Source: a bacterium | GTDB lineage: Bacteria > SAR324 > JACQKK01 | Direction of reading: 5' to 3' | Assembly (NCBI GenBank): GCA_965240465.1 | Contig: OZ251219.1 | Coordinates: 672,001-736,000 of the forward strand | DNA: 64,000 nt | Part shown: positions 42,105 to 50,719 of the stretch, piece by piece | Layout of the letters: every line of letters starts with the position of its first letter | Position numbering within the stretch: the stretch's first letter is position 1 | The notes under the pieces: generated by a model | Database searches by the model: none | The model's input: the letters and a program-made list of their open reading frames with translations, nothing else | Told to the model about the DNA's origin: nothing | Translations under genes and position numbers: made by a program

Positions 42105-43931
42105 ATGAAAAAATTATCACTACTATCAGCCAGTTGTATTCTGGCTTTATTTTTAGCTAGCTGCGGGGGGGGTAGTAGCGGTGGTGGTGGTGGTGGTGGA
42201 TCTGTTGCCGACGCCGACGGCGACGGTCTAATAGAAATTGCCACTGCTGAGGAACTGAACAACATTCGCCATAATTTGGCAGGCACTAGTTATAATGATG
42301 GCACGAATGCTCCATCTAGTACGGGCTGTCCTAGATCTGGTTGTAATGGCTACGAACTAGCTGACGACATTGATCTTTCCTCCATTACCAACTTTGTTCC
42401 CATTGGACAATTAGGCAGTCCTTTCACGGCTATCTTTGAAGGTAATGATTACACCATCAGTAACCTAAACATTGCCACCGACAATACCACCTACTACACG
42501 GGATTCTTTGCGATCTCTAGAGGCAAAGTGCAAAACTTGTCCTTTGCAACAGGTTCAGTTGCCAGTAGCAATAATGGTGGTAGTAGGAGTAATCTCAACT
42601 GTGTAGGGGTTCTGGCAGGCAGAAATAATGGAATAATATCGGGTGTTTCTTCGGGGCCATCGGTTTCTGCTGGCACAGGTGACTATGACTGTGTAGGTGG
42701 CTTGGTAGGTAGCAATAATGGCACTATTCAAAATAGCTCTGTCACTAGCTCTGTCACTAGCTCTGTCACTGGCTCTGCTGATGGCGGTGGTGGTAACTAT
42801 GACTATGTGGGTGGCTTGGTAGGTTATAATGGAGGTAGCATCCAAAATAGCCGTGCCACTGCCACTGCCAATGGCGGTGGTGGTAACTATGACAATGTGG
42901 GTGGCTTGGTAGGTTATAATGGAGGTAGCATTGGTAATAGCTCTGCCACTGGCTCTGCTGATGGCGATGATGGTGACACTGACTCTGTGGGTGGCTTGGT
43001 AGGTTATAATACTGGCACCATCCGAGATAGTCATGCCACTGGCTCTGCTGATGGCGATGATGGTGAATATGACTCTGTGGGTGGCTTGGTGGGTAGTAAC
43101 TACGGCACCATCGGTAATAGCTCTGCCACTGGCATTGCCAGTGGCGGTGCTGGTAATGACAATGTGGGTGGCTTGGTAGGTGGTAATACTAGCACGATCC
43201 AGAACAGCTATGCCACTGGCATTGCCAGTGGCGGTGCTGGTAATGACTTTGTGGGTGGCTTGGTGGGTTATGATTTTAATGGCACCATCGGTAATAGTTA
43301 TGCCACTGGCAATGCCAATAGCGATGCTGGTAATGACTATGTGGGTGGCTTGGTGGGTTATGATTTTAATGGCACCATCGGTAATAGCTATGCCACTGGC
43401 AAAGCCAATGGCGGTGATGGTGATGACGCTGTGGGTGGCTTAGTGGGGAGTATTAATAATGATGAAAATGCTTTAACCATCGGTAATAGTTATGCCTTAG
43501 GCAATGTGGTTGGGGGCGAGGGAACCGATGAAGTGGGTCGCTTGATTGGAAAAAAAGGGACTGGGACTGGGACAATTACAATTACCAGCAACTATTATGA
43601 TAGTGATAGTGTCTTAGATGGCGAAAATCCCCTATCCCTTCCAGATACCGAAGCTCTGGGCAAAACCAGCGACCAGCTGAAAGCCAACAACAATGTTGCC
43701 CCCGATAGTGGTACTGCTTGCACTAGTGCTGGGGGAACTTGGGATAGCGGTGCATGCACCGATGGGCATCTGAACCTTAGTGCCAACAACTGGGATTTCA
43801 CTGACGGCAAATACCCCAGCTTAAAGTCCTACAAGGTGGATGCCAACGATACCCAAATCGCAGGCGATCTACTCTGTGGGCAATTACCCGTGGCTGACTT
43901 CGTTCAGTGTCCCCCCCCCACTACGCCTTAG
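42105..43931 (+). CDS. Surface lipoprotein 6: 1 GLUG module
   Basis: Start MKKLSLL after GGAGG; lipobox FLASC; VGGLVG repeats. Confidence 0.88.
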   Translation: MKKLSLLSASCILALFLASCGGGSSGGGGGGGSVADADGDGLIEIATAEELNNIRHNLAGTSYNDGTNAPSSTGCPRSGCNGYELADDIDLSSITNFVPIGQLGSPFTAIFEGNDYTISNLNIATDNTTYYTGFFAISRGKVQNLSFATGSVASSNNGGSRSNLNCVGVLAGRNNGIISGVSSGPSVSAGTGDYDCVGGLVGSNNGTIQNSSVTSSVTSSVTGSADGGGGNYDYVGGLVGYNGGSIQNSRATATANGGGGNYDNVGGLVGYNGGSIGNSSATGSADGDDGDTDSVGGLVGYNTGTIRDSHATGSADGDDGEYDSVGGLVGSNYGTIGNSSATGIASGGAGNDNVGGLVGGNTSTIQNSYATGIASGGAGNDFVGGLVGYDFNGTIGNSYATGNANSDAGNDYVGGLVGYDFNGTIGNSYATGKANGGDGDDAVGGLVGSINNDENALTIGNSYALGNVVGGEGTDEVGRLIGKKGTGTGTITITSNYYDSDSVLDGENPLSLPDTEALGKTSDQLKANNNVAPDSGTACTSAGGTWDSGACTDGHLNLSANNWDFTDGKYPSLKSYKVDANDTQIAGDLLCGQLPVADFVQCPPPTTP

Positions 43932-43977
43932 GCTAGCCCCCCCCCCCCGACTGCACCCTAGGCTACACCCTCGGCAA

Positions 43978-44094
43978 ACTGCTTGAAAAAAGCAACCGAG
44001 CATTTTTCTGGGAGTGAGTAGTACTCACTCCCTTTTTCTTTTTGGTAGGGGGGACAACCAATCTCTTTTAAGCACTTGACAAACTGATCGCGAT
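43978..44094 (+). terminator. Repeated intergenic element copy 4 (terminator; its 3' end supplies a -35 box)
   Basis: Hairpin 44010-44032 plus T-tract; ends TTTTAAGCACTTGACAAACTGATCGCGAT. Confidence 0.85.
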
Positions 44095-44104
44095 ACCCTA
44101 CACT
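44076..44104 (+). promoter_or_regulatory. Sigma70 promoter preceding the candidate ncRNA
   Basis: TTGACA (44076-81)-17 nt-TACACT (44099-104); no credible ORF downstream. Confidence 0.75.
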
Positions 44105-44193
44105 CACATTATCAAAACATTTTTAGTGATCCAAACTGCAGTTATGCCAAACCTAGGCTGGTAAGGATAGGTTCGCTAAGGGTTTTAGATAAC

Positions 44194-44783
44194 GAATGAA
44201 AGGGGATTGGTGGGTAGTGACCGCCTGAGGTTCCGTCATACCGAAGGGTGGATCATGTGTGTCCTTTGTGCCTTTTGGCATATGTTTTGGCACACGCAAA
44301 TGACGAGGAAGATGAGGAGGTAGATTGCACCGAAATCTCTTCTCCCCTCCGCAAATGAGTAGAACTTAGGCAAGTCCTAGATTCCTGCCATTAAGGGATT
44401 AAAACGCGGATTAAGCAATCGCAGAAACACTGGCGGGAGTTTAATAGCTCCGAAGGTCGTGAAACGCCGTTTCTGTTTTGGTAAGTACTTTTAGTACTTT
44501 TTCCAAGGTATAATTTCACGCCTAGTACCGAGCTGGGACTGAGCAATTTTAATTAATTGCCAGTTTGCATTGCTAGTTTGCATTGCTAGTTTGCATTGCC
44601 AGAGCGAAAGCGAACGCAAGTCTCGGTTCACTTAGTGGCATCCTTTCGGTAGCCACTAGCGAAGCTGAGGTCGTCATTGCAAACCGTAAGACTTCGCGGG
44701 AGGACCGTGCCATCATCTCAGGGTGAGGATTTTTGAGAATAATGGAGCAAGCGATGACATTCCTCACCAAGCCTCTTTCATTC
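44194..44783 (+). ncRNA. Candidate large structured ncRNA (~590-nt core; transcript probably from ~44111)
   Basis: 44194-44214 pairs with 44763-44783 (2 G-U, 1 mismatch); dense nested hairpins, GNRA loops, pseudoknot; own promoter and downstream terminator; family not identified. Confidence 0.8.
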
Positions 44784-44872
44784 TACCCCCCCAAAAAAAC
44801 CCACCCACCCCCAAAAAAACCCCTACCCCCCTCACCTTGATTTCTCCATCACCCTGCATCCCCCTCCCCCCC

Positions 44873-44982
44873 GACTGCTTGAAGAAGGCAGCCCTAGCAT
44901 TTGGGAGTGAGTCTCACTCCCTTTCTTTTTGGTGGGGGGACAACACCAATCTCTTTTAAGCACTTGATAAATTGATCGCGAT
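44873..44982 (+). terminator. Repeated intergenic element copy 5 (likely terminator of the ncRNA; abuts convergent uvrB)
   Basis: GGGAGTGAG-T-CTCACTCCC (44903-44921) plus T-tract; direct repeat of copy 4. Confidence 0.85.
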
Positions 44983-44986
44983 GTTT

Positions 44987-46978
44987 TTAGTAGATTCCCA
45001 GATTTTCCTTTTTAATACGAGTGATTTCATCACGGATATCGGCAGCTTGTTCAAATTTCAGGTTTTTGGCGGCTAGTTTCATGGATTTTTCCAGTTGTTT
45101 GACTTCTTTGAGCCAGTTTAGGTTAGATTGATGGTTTTTGGAGATAAGGGTATCAGGGGGAGATTTTTTTGATTTGGCAGGGGTTTTTTCAGCCGAGCTC
45201 AGTTGAGTTTCCAGTATTCTTTGGACGGCTCGGGGAGTGATGTGATGTTTTTTGTTGTAGTTTTGCTGGATGTTTCGGCGGCGATTAGTTTCATTGATAA
45301 CAGATTGCATGGAGGGGGTGATTTTTTCGGCATAGAAGATGATGCGTCCTTTTTCGTGTCTGGCGGCTCGTCCGCAGGTTTGCATAAGGGAGCGTTCAGA
45401 GCGTAGGAAGCCTTCCTTATCGGCATCAAGGATGGCGACTAGGGAGACTTCAGGGAGGTCTAGTCCTTCTCTTAGGAGATTGATGCCTACGAGTACATCA
45501 AAGGCTCCGCTACGGAGGTTGCGTATTATTTCGGCTCTTTCCAGGGCGTTGACTTCTGAGTGCATCCAGCATATTTTGATTCCGAGTTTTTCATAATAGG
45601 TTGCGATGTCTTCAGCCATTCTTTTGGTGAGGGTGATGATGAGTACTCGTTCATTTTTTTGGGAGCATAGTCGTAGTTCGTGTAGGAGGTGGTCTATTTG
45701 TTGGTTAGCTGGTAGCACTTTGATGGGGGGATCGAGCAATCCAGTGGGTCGGATGAGCAGTTCTAGGGGTTTGCTTATTTTGCGTTCATAGGGTCCAGGG
45801 GTAGCAGAGAGGTAGATGGCTTGGACGATTCTTTGTTGATATTCTTCAAAGGTTAGGGGTCGGTTATCCAGGGCACTGGGTAGTCGGAAGCCGTGTGCGA
45901 CGAGGGTTTTTTTTCTAGCTTGGTCGCCTTTGGACATTCCAGCTAGTTGTGGGAAGCTGACGTGGCTTTCATCAACGAATAGCAGGGAGCGAGTGGGAAA
46001 GTAGTCTATCAATGTTTCTGGGGGGCTACCGGGTTTTCTATTATGTAGCCAGCGGCTGTAGTTTTCTATTCCCTTGCAAAAGCCGGTTTCTTCCATCATT
46101 TCTAGATCAAAGTTGGTGCGTTGTTCCAGTCTTTGTGCTTCTAGCAGTTTGTTTTCTTTATGGAGATTGATTAATTGTTCAGCGAGTTCTTCCCTGATAG
46201 AGTTCAAGGCATGCTTCATTTCACTGGGAGGCGATACATAATGAGAAGCAGGGTAGATAGCAATCTTGCTAAGTAGTTCTACCTTATTGCCTCTTACGGT
46301 ATCTATACGGCTGATGGCTTCTATTTCGTCGCCAAAGAACTCTATCCTTATTGCGTGTTCGCTTTCGGCAGGGAACACTTCTACCACATCTCCCCGTACC
46401 CGAAATACTCCCCGATGAAAATCGTAATCATTACGTGTGTATTGAACATCCACCAGCCGTAGTAGCAAGGTATCTCGGGAGAGTTTCTCGCCTACTTGTA
46501 CGTACACCAGCATTTTCCGATAAATCTCGGGCGAACCCAATCCATAAATGCATGACACACTAGCTACGATTACCACATCTTCTCGCTCCAACAGGGATTT
46601 GGTAGCCGAAAGACGCATGCGATCAAGTTCATCATTGATGGAAGCATCTTTTTCAATGTATAAGTCTTGGGCGGGGAGATAGGCTTCGGGTTGGTAGTAG
46701 TCGTAATAGCTGACGAAGTACTCCACTGCATTATCGGGGAAGAATCTCTTAAACTCTTGGTAGAGTTGGGCTGCTAGGATTTTGTTAGGAGCGATTACTA
46801 ATCCTGGACGCTGGAGATTTGCTATGACATTAGCCATAAGAAAGGTTTTACCAGAGCCAGTAACTCCAGCTAGGGTTTGATGCTGAACTCCAGAGGAGAA
46901 TCCAGTACATAGTTTATCAACCACCTCAGCTTGGGGCGGAGTAAGAGAGAACTGCGATTGCAGACGGAATTTATTCAT
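44987..46978 (-). CDS. uvrB: Excinuclease ABC subunit B
   Basis: GVTGSGKTF, FVSYYDYYQPEAY, GINLLREGLDLPEV, C-terminal UVR domain. Confidence 0.98.
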   Translation of the reverse strand: MNKFRLQSQFSLTPPQAEVVDKLCTGFSSGVQHQTLAGVTGSGKTFLMANVIANLQRPGLVIAPNKILAAQLYQEFKRFFPDNAVEYFVSYYDYYQPEAYLPAQDLYIEKDASINDELDRMRLSATKSLLEREDVVIVASVSCIYGLGSPEIYRKMLVYVQVGEKLSRDTLLLRLVDVQYTRNDYDFHRGVFRVRGDVVEVFPAESEHAIRIEFFGDEIEAISRIDTVRGNKVELLSKIAIYPASHYVSPPSEMKHALNSIREELAEQLINLHKENKLLEAQRLEQRTNFDLEMMEETGFCKGIENYSRWLHNRKPGSPPETLIDYFPTRSLLFVDESHVSFPQLAGMSKGDQARKKTLVAHGFRLPSALDNRPLTFEEYQQRIVQAIYLSATPGPYERKISKPLELLIRPTGLLDPPIKVLPANQQIDHLLHELRLCSQKNERVLIITLTKRMAEDIATYYEKLGIKICWMHSEVNALERAEIIRNLRSGAFDVLVGINLLREGLDLPEVSLVAILDADKEGFLRSERSLMQTCGRAARHEKGRIIFYAEKITPSMQSVINETNRRRNIQQNYNKKHHITPRAVQRILETQLSSAEKTPAKSKKSPPDTLISKNHQSNLNWLKEVKQLEKSMKLAAKNLKFEQAADIRDEITRIKKENLGIY

Positions 46979-49807: not shown

Positions 49808-49878
49808 CTGGTCTTAGCTGGGAGGCTGGTCTTAGCTGGGAGGCTGGTCTTAGCTGGGAGGCTGGTTTTAGCTGGGAG
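49808..49878. repeat. 18-bp tandem repeat continuing the 3' end of the ATPase gene
   Basis: GGCTGGTCTTAGCTGGGA x4. Confidence 0.85.
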
Positions 49879-50719
49879 GTAGCTCACGGCGATCTGGGCA
49901 GTTTATGTGTAGAAAGTAGCACATTTCCTGCAGGCGAGAATAAACTCTAGGTCCAACTCGTTCAGCCAAGGTTTCCCGTATTTCTATGGGTTCGGCTTCT
50001 GCTATCGTGCCTGGGGGTTTTATTCTTTCAGAGATGGTTTGTCCGTGGGTGATGGCATAGTTAGTAGTGAAGACGCACATGCTACTGGCATTGTAGCGTT
50101 GAGAGATAACCGTATCCAGGATGTCTTGCTCCCATTTGGTATTACGTCCTTTGCCTAGTTCATCTATCACCAGTATTTTGGCGTCCACTAGGGGTTGGAT
50201 TAGTTCTCCATCTGAGGTGCCGTGGCTGTAGCCTGCTTTTAGATCGCTGAGCAAATGGAAGAAATCTCTAAAGATAACTGGCAGCCCGCGTTGTACAATG
50301 AATTCATGGATGAAAGCTGCTACCAGCCAAGTTTTTCCTACTCCCGAAAGCCCCGTTAACAAGATGCCCTTATGGCGATCATGATATTCTTTCACCAGCA
50401 ATTTTAGGGTACTAAAAGCCTCTTGATTGCCTTCATCTTTAAATTTGGAGTTCAAACAAGCCTCGGCATATTTAGCTGGTACCCGAGCATGATTGTAGTG
50501 TACTACCGCTTTATGCACTAAGGCACACTGACACGGAGTAGCAAATTCCCGTCCCAGCTCATCGGTCTTGAAGTTCCAGTGCTGGGAATTACATTTGGGG
50601 CAGGAGCGGGAACAATCACAGATACTGGCTCTAGCCCAGTTACCATCTGGTTCTACTACCAAGCCATGCCCGTTACATCTTGAGCAATTTGGTTCTGAGT
50701 TGGGATTTTTTTTAGTCAT
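49868..50719 (-). CDS. DnaC/IstB-like AAA+ ATPase with N-terminal Cys motifs
   Basis: CxxC motifs, GLSGVGKT, LVIDELG, TTNY, RVYSRLQEMC. Confidence 0.85.
   Translation of the reverse strand: MTKKNPNSEPNCSRCNGHGLVVEPDGNWARASICDCSRSCPKCNSQHWNFKTDELGREFATPCQCALVHKAVVHYNHARVPAKYAEACLNSKFKDEGNQEAFSTLKLLVKEYHDRHKGILLTGLSGVGKTWLVAAFIHEFIVQRGLPVIFRDFFHLLSDLKAGYSHGTSDGELIQPLVDAKILVIDELGKGRNTKWEQDILDTVISQRYNASSMCVFTTNYAITHGQTISERIKPPGTIAEAEPIEIRETLAERVGPRVYSRLQEMCYFLHINCPDRRELPPS

Follow-up and report, generated by a model that had tools for sequence, protein, structure and literature searches.

What kind of gene, if any, fills the interval between a GLUG-motif gene and a convergent uvrB gene in the genome of a SAR324 bacterium (GTDB lineage Bacteria; SAR324; JACQKK01), where the open reading frames (ORFs) are all short and unremarkable? 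The interval lies in a stretch of 64,000 nt, positions 672,001 to 736,000 of the forward strand of contig OZ251219.1 (assembly GCA_965240465.1), hereafter called the window, and coordinates count from its first letter unless another contig is named. A preliminary description, made from the letters of the window, had proposed at this place a large ornate non-coding RNA (ncRNA) with its own promoter, a closing helix and a pseudoknot, being either a divergent member of a described family or a new class. We put a probability of roughly 0.7 on the reading that positions 44076-44931 of the plus strand are a stand-alone non-coding gene of an undescribed family of large structured RNAs, whose transcription is predicted from sequence signals and would yield an RNA of about 0.8 kb.

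A first part of the answer comes from the genome itself, a single contig of 1,599,138 bp rated 83.6% complete, in which the element is repeated. Searches with blastn found it there at 100, 96, 93, 73 and 67% identity together with one partial match; nhmmer with a five-copy alignment returned five full and two partial loci, and R1, a covariance model covering the 5' domain, exactly seven loci, with E<=1.1e-13. Five copies are long; counted from the first to the last position of the closing helix, their cores span 590 nt in the window copy (c1) and then 580, 552, 583 and 581 nt (c2-c5). The other two are minis, whose cores span 251 nt in p6 and 221 nt in p7. The minis retain the closing helix, all of the 5' core and, on the 3' side, a short conserved strand; about 390 nt of the interior are missing, some 70-100 nt standing in place of the peripheral domain in both of them. 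Because the minis keep it without that domain, the 5' core is marked as the functional core of the RNA. In the alignments the copies become similar at the -35 box and cease to be so 2 nt past the closing helix. Copies c1-c3 are 93-96% alike and probably spread along with the GLUG array, and the more distant copies, 55-73% alike, nevertheless fold. Since the element is multicopy, the proposed helices are open to a covariation test.

This test gave a clear signal in both forms of the RNA. When the seven sequences were aligned to R1, 98.0% of the 204 cells of the shared core were standard pairs, and 16 of its 30 pairs changed on both sides, a count reached by none of 500 column shuffles and compared with 0-6 when partners were slid. 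For the long form, a MAFFT alignment of the five long copies was combined with an RNAalifold structure of 191 pairs; 94.9% of 936 cells were paired and 21 of the 191 pairs changed on both sides, shuffling giving 6.6 on average (0/500 reaching the observed value) and the slid controls 3-7. Compensatory changes fell in the closing helix, in GTGTGTC/GGCACAC and its inner hairpin, and in AAGTACT/AGTACTT, TAGTGGC/GCCACTA and CTGAGG/TCTCAG, all of them helices that had been listed beforehand. Folding energies agreed with this picture. The plus strand of 44190-44790 folded at -212 kcal/mol, compared with -174.9 +/- 6.3 for shuffled sequences (z = -5.9, 0/20 shuffles as good), and the minis gave z = -6.22 (p6) and z = -6.53 (p7), each with 0/200 shuffles as good; c5 reached z = -4.76 (0/100). 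The bias of G-U pairs towards the plus strand noted in the preliminary description was borne out as well, with 24-36 G-U pairs against 0-6 A-C pairs per long copy in a structure predicted on that strand. This excess, together with the promoter and the terminators, points to the plus strand as the RNA strand. No reading frame is conserved among the copies, frames of at least 35 aa differing in place and phase and being entirely missing from p7, in agreement with the earlier statement that the interval holds no credible ORF. As judged by comparison of the copies, it is the RNA fold, and not coding capacity or DNA ends, that is under selection.

This conclusion bears directly on a different explanation, namely that the copies are a non-autonomous mobile or selfish element akin to a miniature inverted-repeat transposable element (MITE), with the closing helix as terminal inverted repeats and the minis as internal-deletion derivatives. 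Like MITE-type transposons, the element is multicopy and non-coding, has inverted repeats near its ends (here of 26 nt) and occurs in shortened derivatives, its seven long and short copies all keeping both ends; the window copy is moreover flanked by 120-nt direct repeats, and fragments of the promoter stretch remain in many GLUG spacers. However, conserved sequence runs for about 118 nt beyond the 5' repeat, covering promoter and leader, and for only 2 nt beyond the 3' repeat, and the flanking direct repeat is the spacer of the array rather than a target duplication, none of which was seen. The stems covary around fixed loops and keep G-U pairs, which argues for selection on RNA and not on DNA ends, and copies diverged to the extent given above still fold. 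Neither RVT_1 nor the TnpB-type domain (PF07282) was found in the genome, in searches that did not extend to other transposase families. We thus regard a mobile element as unlikely. A retroelement or guide-RNA origin was also considered and rejected, the genome being without RVT_1 and PF07282.

Each helix listed in the preliminary description was found where it had been placed, and the copies allowed most of them to be judged individually. The 26-nt inverted repeat 44194-44219/44758-44783 is 81% complementary, and a closing duplex of 20-26 bp forms in all seven copies, at -22.5 to -32.6 kcal/mol; c4 carries three compensatory pairs in it and c5 a matched deletion on both strands. Next to it stands a hairpin that the first description had missed, whose stem consists of unrelated sequences in c1, p6 and p7 around a loop that keeps the words TGAGGTTC, GTCA and CCG. 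In the third helix (44307-44315/44336-44343) the proposed pairing AGATT/AATCT is mismatched in c4, c5, p6 and p7 and the register had to be revised; the supported one joins GGAAGA(T)GA with TCTCTTCT and adds GGT/ACC, with one pair reading G-C, G-U or A-U and the bulged T gone in the minis. The word GAGGAGGT is invariant in all seven copies. The helices GCAGAAAC/GTTTCTGT and TCCGC/GCGGA are compatible with every copy and at the same time invariant, hence uninformative, and GTCATTGC/GCGATGAC, likewise compatible, varies on one side only. GCAATT/AATTGC is present in the window and sits in a segment that differs between copies. The predicted helices of the leader are 82-95% paired, with one compensatory pair apiece.

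Two pairings cross other helices. The complementarity TTCCGTCAT/ATGACG, listed beforehand as a nested helix, had to be reread, since it is best taken as a predicted 6-bp pseudoknot between the loop of the unlisted first hairpin (44234-44239) and the joining strand. The long copies have CGTCAT/ATGACG here and the two minis CGTCAC/GTGACG, with a one-base insertion at this place in c2 and c5. In the long forms there is an alternative, 44296-44306 with 44671-44680, which is 100% paired in 5/5 long copies. The 3' pseudoknot of the preliminary description pairs throughout the five long copies, and one CTGAGG/TCTCAG pair reads U-A, G-C or G-U; a nested alternative fits equally well.

The segment 44540-44602 varies between copies, with three 13-nt units in c1, two in c2 and none in c3. 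Contigs assembled from the source sample carry a 13-nt deletion, of one repeat unit, at 44562-44574, which reflects that the number of units varies among paralogues or strains.

The signals expected of a gene of its own surround the fold. The promoter claimed earlier, TTGACA-17-TACACT, is present upstream, and TTGACA with its 17-nt spacer is kept in six of the seven copies (c1-c5 and p6), the -10 box reading TACACT, TATACT or TAGATT; a putative transcription start lies near 44111. A promoter of the family type is not present at p7. About 11 tandem 16-nt units stand directly upstream of p7 (L012:4360-4545), the copy that is without the family promoter and leader.

These same signals bear on whether the RNA could instead be a cis-acting part of its neighbours, such as a 3' untranslated region of the GLUG gene, a leader or riboswitch, or an insulator of the array. 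Four of the five long copies do follow GLUG genes immediately, at or near array ends. Yet the RNA is cut off from the upstream gene by a terminator and is preceded by a conserved promoter of its own, a terminator of its own and then the convergent uvrB come after the window copy, and c5, p6 and p7 lie in unrelated contexts; a cis-acting role therefore appears very improbable.

Several observations weigh against a stand-alone structured RNA gene. The separate transcription unit is a prediction from sequence signals, and the promoter scan found one site at the locus where 1.1 were expected in shuffled sequences, which is not significant by itself. The minus strand also folds well (z = -4.9), and c4 folds only weakly better than its shuffles (z = -2.46, 1/100 as good). 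The covariation is drawn from the paralogues of a single genome, amounting to some five independent sequence types; the seven-sequence core alignment (A7) was fitted to the model and so favours the structure, and in the long form a second measure, the gain of further pair types, was not significant (62/500 shuffles reached it). For several helices other pairings fit the copies just as well, which leaves the tertiary layout ambiguous. An RNA that serves a core cellular function is not usually met in a single species, as this family was. The copies have no conserved neighbouring gene for a partner protein, and the link to GLUG genes holds for two of five independent lineages (c1-c3 counted as one, plus c4), c5 and the minis being elsewhere. 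The features of the locus are collected in Table 1.

Table 1. Features of the RNA locus and its surroundings (window coordinates unless stated otherwise)
Feature	Position	Strand	Basis or remark
GLUG arrays	window 19385-43931; genome ~312-351, 692-716, 795-812, 871-908, 1343-1357 kb	+ (window)	motif search
GLUG-motif gene, 640 aa	42009-43931	+	upstream neighbour; carries GLUG motif
Long C tracts	43905-43955 and 44786-44872; many GLUG gene ends
Left copy of ~120-nt direct repeat, the intergenic module of GLUG arrays	43975-44094	+	repeat search; module at at least 18 intergenic sites
Left-module contents: C-rich stretch, terminator hairpin, then stretch with -35 box of the RNA		+	repeat search
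Intrinsic terminator of upstream GLUG gene	44010-44041	+	10-bp stem, 6 G-C pairs, T-run; shorter limits 44010-44032
Predicted sigma-70-type promoter, -35 TTGACA, 17-nt spacer, -10 TACACT	44076-44104	+	promoter scan
Conserved 5' leader, 83 nt, before closing helix	44111-44193	+	alignments A2/A3; without counterpart in mini p7
Closing helix P1, 5' strand	44194-44219	+	inverted repeat and duplex prediction
Hairpin, covarying stem 44217-44225/44247-44256, 21-nt loop	44217-44256	+	6/9 pairs change both sides
Variable-length hairpin GTGTGTC...GGCACAC plus inner hairpin	44257-44295	+	7/7 (GTGTGTC/GGCACAC) and 2/3 (inner) pairs change both sides
Conserved joining strand (GCAAATGACGA)	44296-44306	+	candidate pseudoknot partner of loop 44234-44239
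Bulged helix presenting invariant GAGGAGGT and TGCACCG	44307-44343	+	core covariation, two helices
Peripheral multi-hairpin domain, long copies only (n=5)	44345-44735	+	alignments, RNAalifold structure
13-nt tandem repeat, 3 units, in copy-variable segment	44556-44602	+	repeat search
Candidate 3' pseudoknot, 44665-44670/44716-44721 crossed by 44673-44680/44751-44758	44665-44758	+	70/70 cells standard pairs
Closing helix P1, 3' strand	44758-44783	+	copy homology stops at 44785
C/A-rich, G-poor tail	44786-44872	+	common to c1-c3 only
Predicted intrinsic terminator 3' of the RNA, within right module copy 44870-44982	44903-44931	+	terminator scan; shorter limits 44903-44921
UvrB gene, 663 aa, convergent	ends at 44987	-	downstream neighbour

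Taken together, the helices suggest an architecture in which a helix of 20-26 bp would bring the ends of the 590-nt core together. The core proper would then comprise a hairpin with a freely covarying stem and conserved loop words, probably in pseudoknot contact with the downstream ATGACG, a second hairpin of variable length, and a bulged helix displaying GAGGAGGT and TGCACCG. In the long forms, hairpins and the second candidate pseudoknot would make up a further, peripheral domain of about 390 nt. As to function, we tentatively propose, by analogy with OLE, ROOL and GOLLD, that the RNA may be a stable scaffold, either of an RNA-protein particle or of an RNA-only assembly; the core would bind its partner through its invariant single-stranded words, and modulation or multimerisation of the scaffold would be the task of the long peripheral domain. 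Somewhat more speculative is the proposal that this is a new ornate class with long and minimal isoforms from the same reduced genome, whose core might build higher-order RNA-only or RNA-protein assemblies, possibly of mixed protomers, and whose peripheral domain might tie it to the GLUG arrays, for example by co-regulation or by a role in array recombination.

The invariance of GAGGAGGT, a Shine-Dalgarno-like word, in all seven copies could also be taken to indicate a family of trans-acting regulatory RNAs that titrate an RNA-binding protein or ribosomes through exposed motifs, or that pair with mRNAs. Several paralogues under one promoter type would be reminiscent of the multi-gene families of regulatory RNAs. 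On the other hand, the genome holds no recurrent complement of at least 13 nt to the RNA core, GAGGAGGT is partly paired in the supported helix, and a rigid multi-domain fold of 590 nt far exceeds the needs of known sponges and antisense RNAs, all of which makes such a role rather unlikely in our opinion.

How far the family extends was addressed by several searches, all of which require fair similarity or exact motifs, and many of the genomes are incomplete; it is for these reasons that we speak of an RNA not found in the genomes searched rather than of its absence. No match was returned by blastn in 40 relatives, by R1 in the 63 other genomes of the order, or by a model built from all seven copies (R2) in the 87 other genomes of the class, which make up the whole phylum set and include the sister species. 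Model searches with lax filters in five genomes, among them that of the 1.7-Mb sister species, gave a best E of 0.36 (13.2 bits). A 23-base two-block motif contained in all seven copies was nowhere matched exactly, whether in genome, metagenome or viral collections, and blastn found nothing among 50,697 phage records or in the plasmid collection. A looser three-block motif hit eight metagenome loci and one viral locus, which we discarded as chance matches, the models matching the motif alone with 12.9 bits at best. Among the sequencing runs listed for 43950-45000, none is on record as RNA. Contigs of four runs represent a source-like sample with collapsed paralogues, and a second study contributed two short low-depth contigs near-identical to the stretch, one of them exact and the other with one difference and a gap. 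The uvrB gene of the sister species (76% identical) has another gene about 95 nt beyond it and no RNA in between. In a scan of named genomes uvrB had only matches of 48-60% identity, spread over many phyla, and no phycobilisome genes were found.

The surroundings of the copies draw attention to the GLUG-motif genes. Copies c1-c4 each lie directly after a GLUG-motif gene of the same strand and have the intergenic module in common with these genes; the minis do neither. The GLUG motif is matched 150 times or more in the genome, in large tandem arrays whose genes reach 2627 aa. GLUG was detected at E<=1e-6 in two of the 88 genomes of the phylum and in none from the 1.7-Mb sister species of the same genus, so that the sister is without both RNA and GLUG genes, and these surface proteins seem to have expanded in this lineage specifically. 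Because the direct repeat that flanks the window copy is an ordinary array spacer, found at no fewer than 18 sites, the RNA gene takes up a gene-like slot of the array, and GLUG spacers that are without the RNA still hold promoter-like fragments of its gene. Position and shared upstream module suggest a historical, and perhaps functional, link of the RNA to the GLUG surface-protein arrays.

As to the other copies, c5 is placed between a gene for a NERD/UvrD-like helicase and a convergent gene for an OLD/AriA-like AAA_15 ATPase (L010:3197-8261; G000:C1:1208196-1213260), both of which match models of anti-phage defence, and the minis sit among housekeeping genes.

Some further observations concern the arrays and the rest of the window. 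After the terminator, each array spacer, for example G000:C1:332740-333000 and 704540-704800, holds a fragment resembling the -35 box and spacer of the RNA gene, followed by one like the terminal ~30 nt of a GLUG gene and then by TTGACA-17-CATAAT before the next gene, a makeup that suggests old deletions and then the amplification of one unit. Homopolymeric tracts of 10-14 C stand after the conserved GLUG gene end and before each terminator; their length varies by spacer, and they may be slippage-prone and phase-variable. Homologues of the upstream GLUG gene include proteins filed under coral and polychaete assemblies, which are probably bacterial sequence in those assemblies; the closest ones are encoded on metagenome contigs, among them contigs of 138, 58, 34 and 17.6 kb. 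Elsewhere in the window, a 283-aa ORF (49868-50719, minus strand) with sub-cutoff similarity to helper ATPases of the IstB/DnaC type adjoins a 459-aa ORF without NCBIfam match, and the pair may be the remnant of an IS21-like element or may encode a helicase loader.

Very few known bacterial ncRNAs combine a length of about 600 nt with a complex conserved fold, and the study of OLE, ROOL and GOLLD has led to RNA assemblies without precedent (PMC12286853). The present family would add a further class of this sort from a small, little-sampled phylum with 88 species-level genomes. It is directly usable for structure work, since seven diverged paralogues, including two minimal versions, define the core and provide covariation with no need of a further genome. 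Its single-species range and its place in surface-protein arrays that the sister species is missing raise the question of how such an RNA originates and spreads.

The preliminary description had named GOLLD, ROOL and OLE as large structured RNAs to which the element might be distantly related. At gathering scores, Rfam 15 had no match in the whole 64-kb window, with OLE, ROOL, GOLLD, HEARO, raiA, group I and II introns, RNase P and tmRNA among its models. A permissive search (E<=10) of 43700-45200 returned only four sub-threshold matches to eukaryotic snoRNA and miRNA families (E 3-4.3; 16-21 bits against gathering scores of 42-82), which we ascribe to chance, and the diverged copies c4, c5, p6 and p7 had no match at E<=1. 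Since Rfam 15 matches none of the copies, the branch of the earlier alternative that stood is the new class, and that of a divergent known member fell away; the data support a class unrelated to the described ones and up to now known from a single species. Similar size and ornateness speak for a highly diverged member of OLE, ROOL, GOLLD, HEARO, the group I or II introns, RNase P RNA or tmRNA, ROOL averaging 581 nt as given in PMC5737381. Against such a membership stand the lack of any Rfam 15 match to any copy even at E<=1-10 and the lack of a tRNA or phage context; the window has no tRNA or tmRNA genes and the element no blastn match in the phage collection, as the first description had said of its neighbourhood. 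Seven copies with minis, moreover, do not fit RNase P RNA or tmRNA, and we consider the whole proposal scarcely credible.

The comparison with these systems nevertheless helps to place the new RNA. OLE is about 600 nt long, GOLLD is single-copy, and HEARO, the omega-RNA of IscB, is structured and may be multicopy in a genome, being shorter and attached to a nuclease ORF. The likeness to HEARO ends with structure and potential copy number, since here no copy adjoins a nuclease ORF and there is neither a TnpB-type domain in the genome nor a match to its Rfam model. ROOL is described in PMC5737381 as a stand-alone bacterial ncRNA of ~580 nt with multistem junctions and pseudoknots, whose function is not known, and in PMC12286853 as assembling into RNA-only multimeric cages. 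According to PMC5737381, both ROOL and GOLLD are frequently found near tRNA genes or inside prophages, and GOLLD, too, is a large bacterial RNA of ornate structure without known function (PMC5737381; PMC12286853). The RNA studied here resembles ROOL in size and ornateness without matching it in sequence or structure; ROOL spans three phyla, often beside tRNAs or prophages, whereas this RNA was found in one species only, is multicopy with mini forms and has neither context. It is large and ornate like GOLLD, which is longer, lies near tRNAs or prophages and gives no model match. OLE, in turn, is highly structured, works with partner proteins and forms a dimer (PMC3413148; PMC12286853), and OLE, ROOL and GOLLD are all reported as homo-oligomeric RNA assemblies (PMC12286853). 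OLE shares with the present RNA its length of ~600 nt and its high degree of structure and has no model match to it; it occurs in one copy in extremophilic anaerobes, where it works with the OLE-associated protein (OAP), in contrast to the seven copies found here in the reduced genome of a diderm organism, as indicated by the LpxB encoded in the window. By kind, this is another large ornate bacterial RNA, unusual in being multicopy, in having natural minimal forms and in its range, so far of a single species.

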